A stretch of DNA of 37,448 nucleotides from Thermotogota bacterium. GTDB lineage: Bacteria > Bipolaricaulota > Bipolaricaulia > UBA7950 > UBA9294. The stretch spans positions 1 through 37,448 of the forward strand of contig JBDKUT010000009.1 in the NCBI GenBank assembly GCA_039679545.1, given 5' to 3'. Of this stretch, positions 22,166 to 27,554 are shown one piece after another. A program made the position numbers and the translations under genes. The notes beneath the pieces were generated by a model that saw nothing but the letters and a program-made list of their open reading frames with translations, made no database searches and was not told the DNA's origin. Every line of letters starts with the position of its first letter. Within the stretch, counting starts at the first letter, position 1.

Positions 22166-22684
22166 ATGGACCTTTACGCCGCAATCCGTGGCCGGCGGAG
22201 CGTGAGGCGCTTCTCCTCCACACCGATCGATCAAGCGATTCTCGAGCGAATCGTCGGGGCCGCAACGTGGGCGCCGTCGGGCGGAAACGCTCAGACCTGG
22301 CGGTTCGTCATCGTCACGGAGCCTACGAGGATCGCCAAGCTGAAGACCGTGAGCCCGGGTCTCCTGGGCGACCCCGGCGCCGTGGTTGCCGTCTGCCAGG
22401 ACCTCGCCGACGCGCGCGCCAAGGGAAGCACGCTCGGAGAGGTCCTGCTCGCGCCGTGCGACGCCGCGATGGCCGCGCAGAACCTGCTCTTGGCCGCGTA
22501 CGCCGAGGGCCTCGGCACCTGCCCGGTCGCTTCGTTCACCCACAGGGCCGTCGCCCGACTCCTCAAGCTCCCCGAGACCGTCGAGCCGGTTCTGCTCGTC
22601 AGCGTGGGCGTGCCGGACGAGACCCCGGAAGCGCCGGCTCGCAAGACGGAAGGCATCGTGCATTGGGAGGTCTACGGTGGATAG
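22166..22684 (+). CDS. Nitroreductase family protein
   Basis: RRSVRRF, APSGGNAQTWRF and QNLLLAAYAEGLGTC. RBS GAGGT before ATG 22166. Confidence 0.9.
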   Translation: MDLYAAIRGRRSVRRFSSTPIDQAILERIVGAATWAPSGGNAQTWRFVIVTEPTRIAKLKTVSPGLLGDPGAVVAVCQDLADARAKGSTLGEVLLAPCDAAMAAQNLLLAAYAEGLGTCPVASFTHRAVARLLKLPETVEPVLLVSVGVPDETPEAPARKTEGIVHWEVYGG

Positions 22685-22982
22685 TACGGCCCTGGAGGCC
22701 AAGGTCTTCGATCTGATCGGCTACATCGCATCGAGCGCGCGGAACCTCCTCGACGAGACCCCCGCCTACGGCCCGTTCCGCCTTGTCGACGCCGCCAGCC
22801 GACTGGTCGCGATCCTCAAGGAAGCGGGCGTTCAGAGCCCTCGCTTGACCGCGCTACGACAAGAGATCGACAGAGGCAAGTACTCCGTTACCGTTGGCCC
22901 CGACGAATTCAAAGCGTTCCTCGACGCACTCGTCGACACCTTCGTCGACTACCTCGACCCCGACGAATCGCCTCGGATGTAG
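22677..22982 (+). CDS. Small helical protein, DUF6092-like
   Basis: GTG start overlapping the nitroreductase stop, with RBS GGAGG. FDLIGYIASSARNLLDETPAYGPFRLVDAASRL resembles DUF6092 as recalled, not searched. Confidence 0.7.
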   Translation: MDSTALEAKVFDLIGYIASSARNLLDETPAYGPFRLVDAASRLVAILKEAGVQSPRLTALRQEIDRGKYSVTVGPDEFKAFLDALVDTFVDYLDPDESPRM

Positions 22983-22988
22983 CGGATT

Positions 22989-23295
22989 GCGCTCATCGGG
23001 CAAGGAGTTCGGCGGCGTGTTGGCTCCAACTGCACTCTGACGAGCTCTCGAGCTGCTCGGCAACGCAGACCGCTGAGCAGCCCAACTCTCCGAGCGACTC
23101 GACAACGAAGACCGCCGAGTCGCCACGGACCATGGACCAGGAGTTGCGCCCTGCATCGCGCTCGCCGGGCAAGGAGTTCGGCGGCGTGCCGGCTCTGGCT
23201 GCACTCTGCCGAACTCCCGAGCTGCTCGGAGACGGAGAACGCCGAGCAGCCCAACTCCCGAGCGACTCGGCAACGAAGAGCGCTGAGTCGCCACG
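22989..23295 (+). repeat. Two tandem ~138-nt imperfect repeats (about 22989-23127 and 23158-23295), each with three stem-loops
   Basis: Both copies read gggcaaggagttcggcggcgtg...gcactctg..ga.ctc.cgagctgctcgg...gagcagcccaactc..cgagcgactcg...gagtcgccacg. Confidence 0.9.
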
Positions 23296-23346
23296 CACTG
23301 CGAACCGCCTTCCCACAAGCCACAGGCTACATGCCGCGCCCGCGGC
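23291..23346. repeat. Degenerate heptamer array (C[CT][AG]C-NNN)
   Basis: ccacgca ctgcgaa ccgcctt c ccacaag ccacagg ctacatg ccgcgc. Confidence 0.65.
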
Positions 23347-23347
23347 G

Positions 23348-23596
23348 CTACTTCCGGCGCGTCGACGCGGGCCGCGCGTCTACGATCTCAAACAGCTCCT
23401 CAAACGCCTTCCCGACCGCGGCGGAGATCTTGTGCGCCGTCGTGACGCTCGTGCCGGCGCCGTTCTCGATCGAAGAGAGCATCGGCCGGGAAACGCCGAC
23501 CGCGTCGGCGCAATCCGCCGACGTCAGCCCGGCGACGATGCGCGCGCGCCGGACAGCGTCCCCTTTTGACACGATGCGGTAGTACTTCTTCGGCAT
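23348..23596 (-). CDS. XRE/Cro-family helix-turn-helix transcriptional regulator
   Basis: VRRARIVAGLTSADCADAVGVSRPMLSSIENG...AHKISAAVGKAFEELF. A minus-strand TATAGT at 23610-23615 implies a nearly leaderless mRNA. Confidence 0.85.
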   Translation of the reverse strand: MPKKYYRIVSKGDAVRRARIVAGLTSADCADAVGVSRPMLSSIENGAGTSVTTAHKISAAVGKAFEELFEIVDARPASTRRK

Positions 23597-23659
23597 GGTT
23601 CCGAGTGTCACTATACAAGGGGCGACATACGTCAGCGAAGACAGACAAGCGCTTGCCAA

Positions 23660-23698
23660 TGGACATCTAGGAGCGATATAGATCACCTAGAACATCCA
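23660..23698. promoter_or_regulatory. Imperfect inverted repeat, candidate operator between divergent promoters
   Basis: TGGA-ca-TCTAGG-N14-CCTAGA-aca-TCCA. A perfect palindrome CAAGCGCTTG also lies at 23646-23655. Confidence 0.5.
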
Positions 23699-23702
23699 AA
23701 AC

Positions 23703-23731
23703 TTGACATCCGCTTACCAACGTGCTAGATT
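23703..23731 (+). promoter_or_regulatory. Strong sigma70-type promoter with extended -10
   Basis: TTGACA (23703-23708), 17-bp spacer ending in TGc, TAGATT (23726-23731). Confidence 0.8.
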
Positions 23732-23737
23732 GGCCCG

Positions 23738-23851
23738 GATTCCACCGGCGCCCCGGGACAAGCGATCTGACGACGGATCGGGCCCAAGCGGGTGGTATGA
23801 GCTGTCTGAGGGGATTGGTCAAGACTCAGGCCGCGAACCGGGGCGCCCGTG
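23738..23851 (+). ncRNA. Candidate structured ncRNA or cis-regulatory leader (four-way junction), family not recognised
   Basis: Perfect 10-bp closing stem ggcgccccgg/ccggggcgcc enclosing three hairpins, starting just after the predicted transcription start. Confidence 0.5.
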
Positions 23852-23961
23852 CTCTTTCTCGAGCAAGAACCTCGCATGTGGGACCCCAAGCCTCCACGTC
23901 GCTGCAATCCTCGGCTTCTTCTACGAGCGACAGGCCGAAAGCCGCTCGTCTCCGGGTCTTT

Positions 23962-24029
23962 CCGCGAGCTGCAGCGCACGAGCCACAAGCTACGAGCCGC
24001 GATACAATCCACAAGCTACGAGCCGTATT
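23962..24029. repeat. Heptamer array containing an exact 17-bp direct repeat ccacaagctacgagccg
   Basis: ccgcgag ctgcagc gcacgag ccacaag ctacgag ccgcgat acaat ccacaag ctacgag ccgtatt. Confidence 0.75.
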
Positions 24030-24043
24030 CCAAGGAGCCAACC

Positions 24044-24373
24044 ATGCTGAACCGAAGCATCGCGATTGTGACGGCGAAGAAGCCTTTCCACGACTGGCTG
24101 AAGTCCCTCCCCGAGCCGGCCGAACTGACCCTCGCCGAGCTGAATGAGGACGGGATCTCCTACCTTCTCCCGGAACTGGCAGACGACCAGGCTCCCGAGG
24201 ACCTGATCGCCCTCTGCTTCGACATCATCTTCGAAGAGGAGCTTGCCGCCTGGACGACGGACGAGGCGCAGTGGCCGAAGGTTCGCGACCTCGCCACGTT
24301 CCAGACCTGGTTCGACGTCACGTTCCGTTCCATCGTCCTCGACATCGTCGACGAGAAGCTGAAGGACGAGTAG
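24044..24373 (+). CDS. Conserved-looking acidic hypothetical protein (109 aa)
   Basis: RBS AAGGAG and host-like codon usage; sequence NRS...KKPF.DW...IFEEELAAW..DEAQWP..R....F..WF. Confidence 0.8.
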   Translation: MLNRSIAIVTAKKPFHDWLKSLPEPAELTLAELNEDGISYLLPELADDQAPEDLIALCFDIIFEEELAAWTTDEAQWPKVRDLATFQTWFDVTFRSIVLDIVDEKLKDE

Positions 24374-24436
24374 GGGCGGTCCGGCCTAGGCCGGTTCGGC
24401 CGCGGCTGACAGGAGAACGGCGGAGGGATTCTCGGG

Positions 24437-25015
24437 ATGAGGAAGCGAATCCTCGAGCGCTACTCGCGCACGAACGACGGCGAAGTGATCATCGACATCG
24501 CCGCCGCACGGATCGCCGACTTGTACGACGACTTCGACAAGCATGCCCCGTACCTCAAGAAGGAATTGGACCAGGGGCTTGTCGAGTACATCATCGACTC
24601 CGTGCGTGAGATCGGTAAGGAGCCGTTTCTCGTCCAGGTGAGCCTCGCCGCGCCGGTGGACGAGCCTGCCGTTTGTCGCGTTCAGACGAGCCTTCACAAC
24701 TACTTCCTCTACTTGAAAGAGCTCGAAGCTCGCGAGATGCGGCGGCTGGCGCGCAACTCTCTGACCCTGCTGGCGGTCGGCATCGCGATTCTGACCGCGT
24801 CGGTGTGGGTGAATGCGCGACCCTCTGTGCGCGACATCGTCCTTGAGCGCGTGATCGCTGAGGGCTTGACGATCGCGGCGTGGGTTGCGCTGTGGGAGGC
24901 ACTCGCCATGTTCCTCGTGAACTGGGCCCCACACCGGCGGATGATCGCCATGTACGATCGCATCGCCAAGGCCGACGTGCGGTTCCTCGAGGTAGCGCAC
25001 GAGTCGGAGGCGTGA
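24437..25015 (+). CDS. Hypothetical membrane protein with two C-terminal TM helices
   Basis: 192-aa ORF with DLYDDFD.HAPY.KKELD and EGLTIAAWVALWEA; coherent codon usage. Confidence 0.8.
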   Translation: MRKRILERYSRTNDGEVIIDIAAARIADLYDDFDKHAPYLKKELDQGLVEYIIDSVREIGKEPFLVQVSLAAPVDEPAVCRVQTSLHNYFLYLKELEAREMRRLARNSLTLLAVGIAILTASVWVNARPSVRDIVLERVIAEGLTIAAWVALWEALAMFLVNWAPHRRMIAMYDRIAKADVRFLEVAHESEA

Positions 25016-25068: not shown

Positions 25069-25139
25069 GCAGAGGCGGGCAGACAGCCGTCGGTCTGAAT
25101 CGCGCGTTCCGCTCAATGATGGTCGACCTCGTTGGCTGT

Positions 25140-25176
25140 GGCGGCGAGGCGGCGAGGCGGCGAGGCGGCGAGGCGG
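25140..25176. repeat. Octamer tandem repeat (GGCGGCGA)x4.6
   Basis: Direct reading of the sequence. Confidence 0.9.
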
Positions 25177-25189
25177 GGTCCTCGGCAGC

Positions 25190-25434
25190 TGATCCCAAGC
25201 GTCAAGGGCTCCAAGTACGGGCATGGCTTCCAGATCGGCGGCGGTCTCGCTGGCCCCGGCTGCGTCGGCCACGATGGAGGATTCCTCGGCGTCGAGGCGT
25301 TCGTCTCCAATCACCCCTCGACGGGATACACGCTCGTTGTCCTCTCGAACTACTACTACGACTCCGCGCTGCGGCTGATGGAGGCGTTCCCGAAGGAGTT
25401 CCAGAGACACCTCGCGGACGTGAAAGCACGCTGA
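25190..25434 (+). pseudogene. 3' fragment of a serine hydrolase / class C beta-lactamase-like gene
   Basis: KYGHGF...VGHDGGFLG......P..GYTLVVLSN is the C-terminal signature of this family. There is no SxxK-containing N-terminus and no credible start. Confidence 0.7.
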
Positions 25435-25655
25435 GGCTGGGCGTGCAAACCGGGTTTCTCCACGGACCGAGGCAAGCAGGAGGAACTAGGGTCCGGTGCT
25501 AGCCTTGCCGGCGCGCTGCTGTAGCGCGCCAACGAAGACGATGACTCCGGCAGCGTCGTGCGCCGTGGGACAGCATGTTCGACCGATGCATGTGGTATGA
25601 TCGTGCGGTGGTTGTACCTATGGCACGTTGCCGCGAGGGGCTCGCACTTAAGCCG

Positions 25656-26702
25656 ATGGTGGCCTTCCCAGAGATGGCGGGGAAATACCCTCAGCTGCGG
25701 TACATGGGCAGCAAGCATAGGTTGTTGCCGTGGATCCACGAGGTGCTCTCCGCGGTCGAGTTCTCGTCGGCCCTTGACGCGTTTTCCGGAACCGGGTGCG
25801 TAGGGTACCTGCTGAAGACAATGGGCAAGCGCGTCGTCGCGAATGACTTCCTCGACTTCTCCAGCCACATTGCGCGTGCAGCCATTGAGAACTCGGCGAC
25901 GACGTTGTCATCTGACGACTGCGCAATGCTCCTCGAAGAGAACTTCGGGCGGCGAGACTTCATTCGACGAACGTTCACCGGGATCTTCTTCGCTCCTGCC
26001 GATCTGCTGTTCCTCGACAACGTGTGGGCGAACATCCCGCGTCTGGCTACGCCACTTCACAAGAGCCTAGCGATTGCAGCACTTGTCCGATCTTGTGTGA
26101 AGCGCCAACCGCGAGGGGTGTTCACCGTTGCAGGTGATCCAGAGAAGTATAAGGATGGGCGCCGCGATCTGAGGCTCTCTCTTCAGGAGCACTTCTTTGA
26201 GTCTGTTGCAGCCTACAACGCTGCAGTCTTCGACAACGGGCAGTCGTGCGGTGCGAGCAGGGCGGACGTCTTCGCCGTGCCGCAGGATGCTTTCGATCTT
26301 GTTTACATGGATCCTCCGTACGTCCCTCGTGCCGACGACAACTGCTACATCAAGCGCTACCACTTCCTTGAAGGGTTGGCCTCGTACTGGCAGGGCGCGG
26401 GCACAGAGATACTAGAAGACACAAGGGTGCGGAAGATCCCGAAGCGGTTCACTCCGTTCTCGTACCGTCGCACGGCCGTTCAAGCGTTCGATGACCTGTT
26501 TGAGCATTTTGCCGAGAGTATCCTAGTCCTGTCCTATTCATCCAACGGATACCCGGACCTTGACGAACTCACCGCTCTTATGCGGAAGTACAAGCACGAT
26601 GTCCAGGTGTTCGAGAAGACACACCGGTATCACTTCGGCACTCACCGGAACGTCTCCGAACAGAGGGCAGTGGTCCGCGAGTACTTGGTGGTGGGTACCT
26701 GA
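25656..26702 (+). CDS. D12-class DNA adenine (m6A) methyltransferase
   Basis: RYMGSK, motif I DAFSGTG, ANDF, motif IV YMDPPY and LSYS. Start uncertain (25575-25704). Confidence 0.9.
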   Translation: MVAFPEMAGKYPQLRYMGSKHRLLPWIHEVLSAVEFSSALDAFSGTGCVGYLLKTMGKRVVANDFLDFSSHIARAAIENSATTLSSDDCAMLLEENFGRRDFIRRTFTGIFFAPADLLFLDNVWANIPRLATPLHKSLAIAALVRSCVKRQPRGVFTVAGDPEKYKDGRRDLRLSLQEHFFESVAAYNAAVFDNGQSCGASRADVFAVPQDAFDLVYMDPPYVPRADDNCYIKRYHFLEGLASYWQGAGTEILEDTRVRKIPKRFTPFSYRRTAVQAFDDLFEHFAESILVLSYSSNGYPDLDELTALMRKYKHDVQVFEKTHRYHFGTHRNVSEQRAVVREYLVVGT

Positions 26703-27554
26703 ATGAAGTTCCCGAAGGTCGCAATTGAAGGCTTGTTGTCTCAGTTTGCCGAGCTGCCTGCAGACTGGCAGGACGCTACCGCGCGGCGGGTCGTGGGCTC
26801 GATAGGCTCCTCAGTTGCCGCTCTGCGTACGCTCGGAAGGCGCATACGGCCCCAGGACTTGGAGGATCGCCTCCAAGCCGACTCAGCATTCCTTGATACT
26901 TGCCGCCTGTTACTGGGGCTTGGCCAGGAGCCTGCTGCTCATGTCCTCAGCGACGCACTCGGCCGCGAGTCTCTCACGTGGACCAAGCTGCGGGCGCTGG
27001 CTGTCCAGGCGCCCGCGGAGCTTGCAGAGGCGCTTGTTCGCGCAGGACTGCCGGAGATCATCGACAATGGTCTAGGGAAGGAGTGGCGGCTGGAGGACGT
27101 GCTTATCGAGCGCTACAGGATGAGCCGAGGAAGAGCCATAGCAGGGCAGCAGCGCGGGCGTGGGTTGGAGAATGCGGTCGAGGAGGCATTGCGGACCGCC
27201 AACGTGCCCTTTGTCCCTCGAGTGGCGTTTGTGGGCAAGCAAGGCAAGACGGCGAAGTGCGACTTCGCAATCCCGGGCAAGAATAGCCCCAAGGTCGTTG
27301 TTGAGGTGAAGGGTTTCGAGGCGACCGGAAGCAAGCTGACGGACTTCCTGGGCGATGTCCTCAAGATCGCCCAGGCCAAAGACTACCATATGTACTTCTT
27401 CCTTGTCACCGATGGGCGGGGGTGGCAGAACCGGGAGAGCGATCTCCGGAAACTCGTGCAGTACCAGCATGAAGGCCTGATTGACATGATCTACCCGAGG
27501 CGAGCTCTCCCGCAGCTGGCCCAGGCAGTCAGGAGTATCCTCCAGAAAGAGTAG
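26703..27554 (+). CDS. PD-(D/E)XK type II restriction endonuclease, DpnII-like C-terminal domain
   Basis: GRGLENAVE, KCDFAIP, VVVEVKGF..TGSKLTD and FFLVTDGRGW; directly follows the MTase. Confidence 0.8.
   Translation: MKFPKVAIEGLLSQFAELPADWQDATARRVVGSIGSSVAALRTLGRRIRPQDLEDRLQADSAFLDTCRLLLGLGQEPAAHVLSDALGRESLTWTKLRALAVQAPAELAEALVRAGLPEIIDNGLGKEWRLEDVLIERYRMSRGRAIAGQQRGRGLENAVEEALRTANVPFVPRVAFVGKQGKTAKCDFAIPGKNSPKVVVEVKGFEATGSKLTDFLGDVLKIAQAKDYHMYFFLVTDGRGWQNRESDLRKLVQYQHEGLIDMIYPRRALPQLAQAVRSILQKE

Follow-up and report, generated by a model that had tools for sequence, protein, structure and literature searches.

In enterobacteria, the sRNA genes of the pairs OxyR-OxyS, GcvA-GcvB and SgrR-SgrS lie divergent from the gene of their own transcription factor. 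In the immunity regions of phages and satellites, such as those containing the c4 RNA of P1/P7 and the CI RNA of P4, a CI/Cro-type HTH repressor is accompanied by a small immunity RNA, and Rfam holds a C4 family for such RNAs. Comparative genomics has also yielded orphan structured RNA motifs, such as raiA and HEARO, which are now in Rfam. For the Bipolaricaulota, which are uncultured, our literature searches returned nothing relevant on sRNAs or riboswitches.

Here we analyse a window of 37,448 nucleotides (contig JBDKUT010000009.1 of assembly GCA_039679545.1) from the genus Candidatus Bipolaricaulis. Through the comparison of sequences we identify a candidate new RNA family of uncultured Bipolaricaulota: a folded, non-coding RNA gene of about 120 nt, back-to-back with the gene of a small XRE regulator. 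The promoter, the RNA and the divergent 82-aa XRE gene form a single conserved block in the loci compared across genera. The block occurs once per genome, and it is restricted to a subclade of one Bipolaricaulota family (f1).

The arrangement is that of a regulator-coupled sRNA, namely an sRNA gene divergent from a transcription-factor gene with which it forms a conserved pair. As in OxyR-OxyS, GcvA-GcvB and SgrR-SgrS, the genes stand back-to-back, share one short control region, are present in single copy, and are conserved together. Unlike OxyR, GcvA or SgrR, however, the regulator is a minimal XRE HTH protein of 75-82 aa without a sensor domain, not of the LysR or SgrR type. Unlike OxyS, GcvB or SgrS, the RNA has a clamped multi-helix fold rather than a seed and a terminator, in a genome (93.6% complete) where neither Hfq (PF17209) nor CsrA (PF02599), the usual partners of sRNAs, was found.

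With the c4 and P4 CI regions the locus shares a small XRE/Cro-like repressor, divergent strong promoters, and a structured RNA that comes first on the rightward transcript, but the RNA matches neither the C4 family nor any other family in Rfam. Its chromosomal neighbours, unlike those in phage regions, are partly conserved (an M20 peptidase upstream and, in two genera, p192 downstream); the scanned proteins included no phage proteins or integrases. Like raiA and HEARO, the RNA combines conserved sequence with covarying structure, has a narrow taxonomic range, and has no assigned function. In contrast to those motifs, it falls outside all 4227 models of Rfam 15 and has a fixed protein-gene partner.

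Results

Promoter and limits of the RNA

The promoter of the RNA lies on the forward strand (23703..23731) and consists of TTGACA (23703-08), a 17-nt spacer and TAGATT (23726-31), with TG before the -10; it matches the sigma-70 consensus at 10 of 12 positions. This element with its extended -10 had been noticed in the preliminary description of the window, and it proves to be the only site of its kind in 22500-25000, where shuffled sequences lead us to expect 0.2 ± 0.5. The -35 box is invariant in the aligned loci bar one row (TTTGACA), and both the -10 box and 9 of the 17 spacer positions are conserved across genera. Upstream of the promoter there is an A-rich stretch, and the start is preceded by a G+C-rich one.

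We place the RNA at 23738..23860 on the forward strand (about 120 nt), reading its start from the -10 box, and its 3' end from the point where conservation stops and from the CUCUUUCUC tail. The covariance model built for the family, R1, scores this copy, the only one in the genome of the window, at 117.7 bits (23737-23857). Conservation ends at about 23856-59, immediately after the 3' strand of the closing stem P1 described below. The 3' tail CGUGCUCUUUCUC (23848..23860, forward strand) is pyrimidine-rich and represents a possible termination site. The tail reads GCUCUU in subtypes A, B and D, GCUCCUU or GCUCAUC in subtype F, and has CCUCC in genera g5 and g14, while no U-run is seen in subtypes C, E and G. 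A terminator scan of 22500-25000 called none, and P1 with the tail does not make an intrinsic terminator: the hairpin of such a terminator is short and G+C-rich, has a loop of 3-8 nt and precedes a U-run, whereas P1 encloses 81 nt. With no classical terminator called and three subtypes lacking the U-run, the position of the 3' end is uncertain.

Among sequencing runs, three contained 6-10% of the sampled words, all of them in assembled contigs of relatives (mostly 85-95% alike) from which starts, ends and strand cannot be read; one of these runs, labelled RNA, is probably DNA. One metatranscriptome contig spans 23568-23812, across both divergent genes, with no ends or strand readable.

Coding potential and known RNA families

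The earlier observation that no credible ORF follows the promoter for about 300 nt holds for 23732-24043, where the ORFs listed are not conserved; in 23860-24008, conservation is absent even among members of the genus. Over one and the same span of the model, the homologous RNAs are 116-128 nt long. A small ORF within the RNA was considered and rejected, because the length differences are not multiples of three and no reading frame is open in all homologous RNAs (36 distinct sequences).

Nor does the RNA correspond to a known family, as had also been suspected. At the gathering threshold, Rfam 15 (4227 models) gave no matches in the whole window; at E ≤ 10 it gave six in 22800-24200, all weak, far below threshold, and none overlapping 23738-23860. 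ARAGORN found no tRNA or tmRNA in the window, and the SRP RNA, RNase P RNA and tmRNA were located elsewhere in the genome (the tmRNA on contig C18).

Distribution of the RNA and its neighbour

In a sample of 151 genomes from the phylum, R1 finds matches in 19, including the genome of the window, one of the 19 being a weak hairpin match only. All belong to family f1: the model matches 18 of the 54 other f1 genomes and none of the 97 genomes from ten other families. The RNA is confined to seven genera of one family. Related genomes are not independent.

The XRE gene lies upstream of the RNA, and divergent from it, in 31 of 34 loci, the remaining three ending too early to show it. Its orthologs in these loci are 72-100% identical, and one is present in each of the 18 genomes with a strong RNA match. 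A conserved RNA gene beside XRE homologs, which the preliminary description had only anticipated, is thus borne out. In total, 25 of the 151 genomes carry an XRE ortholog, and all of these genomes belong to f1. Among the seven in which the XRE gene appeared without the RNA, six in fact carry next to it a diverged RNA whose promoter and P1 core are the same, and one reads N there. The latter is from genus g5 (locus L194).

The 26 metagenome loci were fetched by a pattern that fixes P1, and the invariance of P1 among them is a consequence of that pattern; the covariation reported below comes only from genomes found through the covariance model or the XRE gene. A loose P1 pattern on genome contigs returned at least 120 stretches, most of which occur by chance in genomes rich in G+C. 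Among 80 pattern loci with DNA, only L033, L067 and L086 exceeded 100 bits with R1, the next best scoring 30 bits, and the Actinomycetota loci that the P1 pattern picked up all stayed at or below 30 bits with this model.

Structure of the RNA

On its own, the sequence of the window does not fold better than expected by chance for its G+C content (z = -1.64; 11 of 200 shuffles fold equally well). The case for structure therefore rests on the comparison with relatives. Across them, the true register pairs in 72.5% of alignment cells, versus at most 54.5% in slid registers. G-U pairs fit the forward strand only, which places the RNA on that strand.

The RNA begins with a conserved single-stranded 5' leader, UUCCACC (23740..23746, forward strand), which reads UUCCAUC, CUCCACC, GCCACC or GCCUAC in other lineages. 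The leader is complementary to an internal GGUGG, a pairing that covariation neither supports nor opposes. The ends are joined by P1, whose 5' strand GGCGCCCCGG (23747..23756) and 3' strand CCGGGGCGCC (23838..23847) form a perfect 10-bp stem in the window, as the preliminary description had it. P1 is paired in 99.7% of cells over 36 distinct sequences. Three of its pairs show C-G to U-A double changes; its flanks covary, from GG/CC to GA/UC in g14 and to AA/UU in g5, and its core CGCCCC/GGGGCG never varies. Compensatory changes are thus seen in several lineages.

Within P1, the minimum free energy fold of the window sequence contains exactly the three hairpins proposed beforehand, all on the forward strand. 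Hairpin A, CGAUCUG-ACGA-CGGAUCG (23763..23780), covaries in other subtypes (GAGCU/AGCUC, GAUCUU/AGGAUC), is paired in 43.7% of cells family-wide, and overlaps the 5' box (23762-23770) of an alternative helix. Hairpin B, GCCC-AAGC-GGGU (23782-93), together with the motif CGGGUGG (23789-95), occupies 23782..23795; CGGG is invariant and the remainder nearly so, and the hairpin is paired in 54.9% of cells with zero double changes. Hairpin C (23804..23831), GUCUGAG and CUCAGGC around a 14-nt loop with the G-rich segment GAGGGGAU, is paired in 72.6% of cells and shows double changes in five of its seven pairs. Its 3' strand doubles as the 3' box (23826-23834) of the alternative helix.

This alternative, long-range helix (columns 34-39 with 101-106) is paired in 66.2% of cells, with double changes in four of six pairs; subtype B (genus g3) lacks it. 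In energy the four-way junction (-55.5 kcal/mol) and the rod-like fold (-54.5 kcal/mol) hardly differ, and some covariation is seen for either. Of the four-way junction put forward in the preliminary description, the closing stem is solid; in the interior, no more than 44% (hairpin A) and 55% (hairpin B) of cells are paired across the family, and the competing long-range helix is equally well supported. RNAalifold on a MAFFT alignment of eight sequences recovered P1 and a mixed interior, which is for that reason not usable as a consensus. Possible pseudoknots join the leader with GGUGG and, in subtypes E and G, the hairpin-A loop with the 3' box.

The regulator and the shared control region

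The XRE-family HTH gene (23348..23596, reverse strand) encodes 82 aa with a conserved core of about 75 aa. Its product scores 33.7 bits against Pfam HTH_3 (E = 3.7e-8; cut-off 23) and so belongs to that family; no NCBIfam model matched it above that model's cut-off. Its nearest solved relatives, at weak E-values of 1e-3, are a 434-repressor-type design and a PbsX-family regulator. There are 157 database homologs at E ≤ 1e-5, and among the 120 listed, all those with a named organism are Bipolaricaulota.

A putative -10 box of the XRE gene, TATAGT (23610..23615, reverse strand), stands 13 nt before the ATG and is conserved as TAnnnT in an intergenic alignment of 46 loci; a simple promoter scan did not call it. 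This box makes a very short leader plausible. The divergent 82-aa gene of the preliminary description is thus confirmed, and its near-leaderless transcript is a plausible reading of the box.

The candidate operator of XRE is a conserved box, GGACATCTAGG (23661..23671), whose consensus gGaCAt-tAg occurs in at least 70-90% of rows and which XRE may bind. Boxes of the GACA type recur at about 23628 and within the -35. A different operator had been suggested earlier, the inverted repeat TCTAGG-N14-CCTAGA said to abut the -35. The repeat is present in the window (23666..23691), but it ends 11 nt before the -35, and the 46-locus intergenic alignment does not support its role as an operator: it is not a conserved palindrome, its right arm being lost in L003, L004, L138 and all other subtypes, and outside the closest relatives the left half alone is conserved. 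Nor is the earlier link of the RNA to the structured repeats beyond the XRE gene supported; these are low-copy repeats of this genome. Clusters of overlapping frames over that stretch recur only in loci of the same genus type.

Discussion

On the strength of these comparisons we consider the conservation of the RNA, its linkage to XRE, the P1 helix and its non-coding nature to be established. The RNA is probably a stand-alone sRNA coupled to its XRE neighbour, and XRE probably controls it.

We lean towards reading the locus as a two-gene module of XRE and a stand-alone structured sRNA, in which XRE sets the level of the RNA as well as its own, and the RNA acts in trans. In such a module, a weak promoter would drive the leftward transcript of the small HTH protein, which would have a very short leader, and some 90 bp off a near-consensus sigma-70 promoter would drive the structured RNA, about 120 nt long, in the rightward direction. 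The RNA would consist of a single-stranded 5' leader of 8-9 nt, the G+C-rich P1 helix of 10-14 bp clamping both ends, a folded interior, and a short pyrimidine-rich tail. XRE would bind conserved boxes in the shared 140-bp control region, both those of the GGACAT type and the unusually conserved promoter spacer, and would thereby tune the levels of the RNA and of XRE itself. The RNA would be the output of the module and, acting in trans, would not have the downstream gene as its target; its exposed conserved elements (the leader UUCCAYC, the motif CGGGUGG and the loop GAGGGG) may be where a protein, a ligand or other RNAs make contact.

The preliminary description had offered a novel riboswitch instead. 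As a cis-acting leader (riboswitch or attenuator), the RNA would sense a ligand or a protein through its fold and so gate read-through past P1 into p109 and p192, and there are features that fit: the interior folds are mutually exclusive and nearly isoenergetic, as in switches; P1 and the pyrimidine tail could serve as a terminator; the promoter scan of 22500-25000 gave no separate promoter for p109 or p192 in this genome, so that read-through is possible; and subtypes A, C and E have a homolog of p192 downstream in the same orientation. Yet nothing is conserved after P1, even within the genus, which means that there is no expression platform, and the genes that follow are not coherent. They vary from p109/p192 to an unknown 387-aa ORF, an HD/PAS protein, an Rrf2-like regulator and tRNA-Ser(GGA), of which the tRNA has its own promoter (TTGAAT-17-TAGAAT) and the Rrf2-like regulator its own promoter-like boxes (regulator and boxes both read by eye). 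That downstream genes differ between genera argues against a riboswitch, and the sole constant neighbour is XRE, upstream and divergent. We consider a cis-acting leader unlikely. The matched changes in P1 could alternatively reflect the shared specificity of a protein instead of RNA pairing, if the arms GGCGCCCCGG and CCGGGGCGCC were paired protein sites in the DNA (for XRE, for example, with looping) or a recombination site. The invariant core CGCCCC/GGGGCG would suit such sites, and matched half-sites would covary too, but a near-consensus promoter lies 9 nt upstream in every lineage, double changes and strand-specific G-U pairs occur in the interior helices as well, the arms stand between 75 and about 95 bp apart, with indels that fall within hairpins, and the XRE control region contains no arm sequence. 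A DNA-level element is thus very unlikely. Similarly improbable is a connection with the message of ribosomal protein L3, whether the RNA descends from an rplC fragment or acts on or mimics rplC mRNA. The leader and P1 5' strand, read as UUC CAC CGG CGC CCC GG, would encode F-H-R-R-P-G, a conserved L3 motif, and the second-best model matches in two genomes, G089 and G024, both fall in rplC at that motif, with 18 consecutive identical bases in G089 (our own count) and about 30 nt of similarity in G024 that includes lineage-specific letters. However, two matches in 19 genomes are a look-elsewhere effect, for which G+C-rich R/P/G codons raise the odds; in the genome of the window, L3 carries V in place of P and the identity ends after 11 of 12 bases; and at its synonymous sites rplC changes freely across the 29 genomes, members of one genus included, whereas the RNA is constant. 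In the absence of co-evolution the similarity gives no support for a function, and for the variation at synonymous sites and the poor match in the window's genome we reject rplC mimicry or antisense action as the function of the RNA.

A very divergent housekeeping RNA would most naturally be 6S, the only common one that we did not locate. RF00013 has no match at the locus at E ≤ 10 and finds 6S in none of five genomes of the family, but its silence says little because the model is weak, finding 6S in only 5 of 14 control genomes. The strong promoter, with its G+C-rich stretch before the start, is like that of stable-RNA genes, and the ends are clamped by a long helix; at about 120 nt, however, the RNA is too short for 6S, which usually has 150-200 nt, subtype B lacks a rod with a central bubble, and 6S would be expected throughout rather than in seven genera of one family. 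Y RNAs are accompanied by a Ro60/TROVE gene in the genome, usually adjacent, whereas no TROVE/Ro gene (PF05731) was found in the 93.6% complete genome of the window. We therefore hold 6S, a Y-like RNA or another known ribonucleoprotein RNA to be extremely improbable. We judge just as sceptically a new class of small catalytic RNA, self-cleaving or of another activity, in which P1 clamps the ends and the junction nucleotides are invariant. The compact multi-helix fold, the invariant unpaired motifs CGGGUGG and CGA before P1, and the possible pseudoknots would agree with catalysis, but no Rfam ribozyme family matches even at E ≤ 10, the RNA is present in a single copy per genome in a context that is neither repeated nor mobile, and nothing points to any cleavage site.

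The locus, then, represents a solid new RNA gene, and not a new mechanism. A bolder variant of the two-gene module, which we regard as quite unlikely, is that RNA and minimal XRE protein together make up a self-contained switch of a new kind: a clamped, pseudoknotted RNA effector would bind a protein or a small molecule and flip between the four-way junction and the rod-like fold, possibly binding XRE itself as a decoy or anti-repressor. If this were true, a sensor-less HTH protein would receive its signal input through an RNA. More generally, the locus adds to the biology of the Bipolaricaulota a candidate RNA family that is supported by covariation and has a fixed protein partner, a combination less common than an orphan motif. 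The XRE partner provides an immediate experimental handle, since XRE, the control region and the RNA can be rebuilt together in vitro or in E. coli.

Locus layout and promoter

The XRE gene, which lies on the minus strand (23348-23596) and encodes an 82-aa HTH protein (Pfam HTH_3, E = 3.7e-8), is separated by an intergenic stretch (23597-24043) from p109, a 109-aa gene (24044-24373), beyond which lies p192 (24437-25015); p109 and p192 are both conserved and of unknown family, with no Pfam or NCBIfam match. As the preliminary description had proposed, the stretch contains a consensus promoter with an extended -10: TTGACA (23703) and TAGATT (23731) are separated by 17 nt, TG stands ahead of the -10, and 10/12 positions match. 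It is the only sigma-70-type site that our promoter scan found in 22500-25000, compared with 0.2 ± 0.5 in shuffles. The transcript is predicted to begin at about 23738 with GAUUCCACC, followed by the 5' strand of the closing stem, P1. The same scan detected no promoter of their own for p109 and p192 in the source genome, G000, and in the window's genus there may be read-through into these genes from the RNA promoter.

The spacer before p109, which is not conserved, contains a short direct repeat, CCACAAGCTACGAGCCG, twice (23983-23999 and 24007-24023); its 15-nt core occurs at these two places only in G000. Motifs like GCTACGAGCC stand 3' of the RNA at loci L134 and L170.

Evidence for a structured RNA

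The 10-bp closing stem described beforehand is perfect in the window, where GGCGCCCCGG (23747-56) pairs with CCGGGGCGCC (23838-47), and it is paired in 99.7% of cells across 36 distinct sequences. In the sequences of genus g4 and in one of g12, three of its pairs have switched from C-G to U-A; the stem reads GACGCCCCGG/CUGGGGCGUC in g14 and GCAACGCCCC.../...GGGGCGUUGC in g5. Since the search pattern fixed P1 in the 26 metagenome sequences, these are invariant in the stem, and only the genomes retrieved with the model or through XRE contribute covariation. Pairing in the true register reaches 72.5% of cells, compared with at most 54.5% for slid partners, and pairs changed on both sides number 14 against 8.2 ± 1.4 in shuffles, figures of a kind that relatedness inflates. 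G-U pairs such as those at columns 36-44, 79-106 and 83-103 are compatible with the plus strand alone, on which the promoter also lies. Measured across one and the same span of the model, the RNA is 116 to 128 nt long, with length differences that are not multiples of three, and no reading frame is open in all of the RNA sequences. From the pairing and covariation of P1, its register, the strand of the G-U pairs and the lengths without a shared frame, we conclude that the locus encodes an RNA. The fold energy of the single sequence is unremarkable for 65% G+C (z = -1.64; 11/200 shuffles are as good).

The interior fold

Inside P1, the four-way junction of the preliminary description proved half right. 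The minimum free energy fold of the window RNA does give its three hairpins, and hairpin C is paired in 72.6% of cells, with 5/7 pairs changed on both sides; across the family, however, hairpins A and B are paired in only 43.7% and 54.9% of cells, and a long-range helix competes with them. In this helix a CUGAG box (23762-70) pairs with a CUCAG box (23826-34), in 66.2% of cells and with 4/6 pairs changed on both sides. The two interior architectures have energies of -55.5 versus -54.5 kcal/mol in G000. By our own reading of the alignment, the long-range helix is present in nearly all rows outside subtype B, the RNA sequence variant of genus g3, which lacks it and has a CA-rich stretch there. 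It takes the forms GUGUGAG/CUUACGC, GCGUGAG/CUUGCGC and GUGCGAG/CUUGCGC in subtype E and UCAGACUCC/GGAG-C-UCUGA in subtype G; in both of these subtypes one box of the helix lies within the loop of a short hairpin, and the helix would therefore form a pseudoknot.

Several elements that are conserved among subtypes A-G are never clearly paired: the leader UUCCAYC (UUCCACC in the window, CUCCACC in F); CGGGUGG, of which CGG is invariant and the remainder nearly so (altered in D); CG(A/G)N, or CAGG in F, ahead of the 3' strand of P1; a G-rich loop, GAGGGG, found in subtypes A, B, D and F and replaced in C, E and G; and a pyrimidine-rich tail, present in A, B, D and F and absent from C, E and G.

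Alternative identities

The RNA had at first been matched to no tRNA, SRP RNA, 6S RNA or common riboswitch, and the database searches agree: the whole window has no Rfam match at gathering thresholds, no relevant match appears at the RNA at E ≤ 10, and ARAGORN found no tRNA or tmRNA. The SRP RNA, RNase P RNA and tmRNA of G000 lie elsewhere, on contigs C114, C21 and C18. The 6S model RF00013 is without a match in five genomes of f1, the family of G000; for a 6S RNA the candidate is too short, and its distribution too narrow. A search of G000 (93.6% complete) gave no TROVE/Ro, Hfq or CsrA, and we found nothing relevant in the literature on sRNAs or riboswitches in Bipolaricaulota. On comparative grounds, the candidate small RNA gene is real, conserved and structured, and it is absent from Rfam 15. 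As a side observation, two tmRNA matches in G000 exceed the Rfam cut-off (C18:13337-13697, 160 bits; C27:1839-2177, 59 bits); finding two in one genome may be due to contamination, estimated at 3.6%, or to a diverged second copy.

A relation to rplC had also to be considered. Translated in frame, the leader and the 5' strand of P1 give F-H-R-R-P-G, which is a conserved ribosomal protein L3 motif. In genomes G089 and G024, the second-best matches of R1, our covariance model of the RNA, lie within rplC, at G+C-rich codons for F-H-R-R-P-G-S (L174:1501-1562 and L175:1501-1650), with DNA near-identical to this part of the RNA over 18-30 nt. In G000 (C54:15872-16492) the match is broken after 11/12 bases. 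Because the synonymous sites of this segment vary freely across 29 genomes while the RNA is constant, we reject a functional relation; the likeness is probably a compositional coincidence, or at most a trace of ancient origin.

The other reading put forward at the outset, a novel riboswitch, is unlikely, since the downstream neighbour changes from genus to genus. Genera g1 and g12 have p109 with p192, or only p192, at this position; in g3 it is taken by an unknown protein or an HD/PAS protein, and in g5 by an Rrf2-like regulator with promoter-like boxes of its own (both read by eye). In terms of RNA subtypes, A, C and E have a p192 homolog 3' of the RNA, and an unknown 387-aa ORF takes this place in some subtype C loci. 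In g6 and its kin (L008, L139, L148) and in one g5 genome (L188), tRNA-Ser(GGA) follows on the same strand 70-390 nt 3' of the RNA, again with its own promoter-like TTGAAT-17-TAGAAT.

Control region

An alignment of the control region at 46 loci shows conservation of the start of XRE; a TAnnnT box on the minus strand (23610-15), 13 nt ahead of the XRE ATG; a GGACAT-TAG box (23661-71); an A-rich stretch with the -35; and 9/17 positions of the promoter spacer (..ACCAACGTGC..). Several lineages have a second TTGAC 11 bp beyond the -35. The inverted repeat TCTAGG-N14-CCTAGA, earlier taken for an operator, fares less well: beyond the closest relatives its right arm is lost and the left arm alone is kept. 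Small RNA genes divergent from their regulators are a known arrangement, and from the same arrangement here we infer that XRE would bind the conserved boxes and control both promoters. Three sequencing runs hold 6-10% of the sampled words, all as contigs of relatives; one metatranscriptome contig covers both divergent genes and is uninformative on transcription either way.

Neighbouring features of the window

Between DUF6092 and the XRE stop codon lie two tandem hairpin-rich units of about 170-180 bp, 86% alike (22990-23298), with related pieces on contigs C21 and C45 of G000 (BLASTN, 10 matches on 3 contigs). These structured repeats had been linked to the XRE-RNA system; in other genera they fall outside the module. 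Farther downstream, a D12-class N6-adenine DNA methyltransferase (25575-26702) is directly followed by a DpnII-like restriction endonuclease (26703-27554), and the two form a type II restriction-modification pair. G+C is lower around the pair (0.588 in 26001-27000), and the 1.5 kb flanking related loci on the downstream side showed no such pair. A 100-aa ORF (25132-25434), weakly matching the C-terminal part of the beta-lactamase family (E = 0.0029, below cut-off), may be a gene fragment.

Taxonomic spread and linkage to XRE

When 23600-24043 was compared with 41 relatives by BLASTN, eight genomes matched, including G000, all from f1. Conservation starts within XRE, continues across the promoter and ends at about 23856-59; within the genus, likeness returns about 150 nt farther on, at p109. 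Two further loci agree over this region with the same-genus genomes G001 and G004 in promoter, RNA start and tail. A stricter pattern, comprising the leader and both stem arms, yielded 26 metagenome loci; combined with the genome loci, this gives 34 loci and 31 distinct RNA sequences. Searching 151 genomes of the phylum with R1, we found matches in 19, including G000, confined to f1 (18/54 other f1 genomes versus 0/97 in ten other families) and to genera g1, g3, g4, g6 and g12; one of the 19, in G131, is a mere generic hairpin. Strong copies number one per genome. A subtype B RNA scoring 102.6 bits is present at locus L086, labelled 'uncultured Thermotogae bacterium'; either this name was loosely applied or the module extends beyond the named phylum.

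It had been proposed to test whether the RNA is conserved beside XRE homologs, and so it is: an XRE ortholog (72-100% identity) stands upstream and divergent at 31/34 loci, the other three having at most 207 nt of upstream DNA. The ortholog occurs in 25 of the 151 genomes, in f1 only, and in all 18 of those with a strong RNA match. The seven additional genomes belong to g5 and g14; in six, the same TTGACA promoter beside XRE is followed by a diverged RNA with a single-stranded leader, a closing stem on the core CGCCCC/GGGGCG and a CCUCC-containing tail. In the seventh, from g5 (L194, G095:C64), about 100 N occupy exactly the place of the RNA, roughly 150-250 nt upstream of the XRE start. Database homologs of XRE number 157 at E ≤ 1e-5, and among the 120 listed, all that are named by organism come from Bipolaricaulota. 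The protein consists of an HTH alone, without a second domain; its nearest solved relatives are weak matches, and no NCBIfam model scores above cut-off. As judged from these genomes, seven genera within a single Bipolaricaulota family have the candidate RNA locked to a minimal XRE regulator. Such a regulator-coupled sRNA is an arrangement of a known kind, here with an RNA family and a class of partner that are both new.
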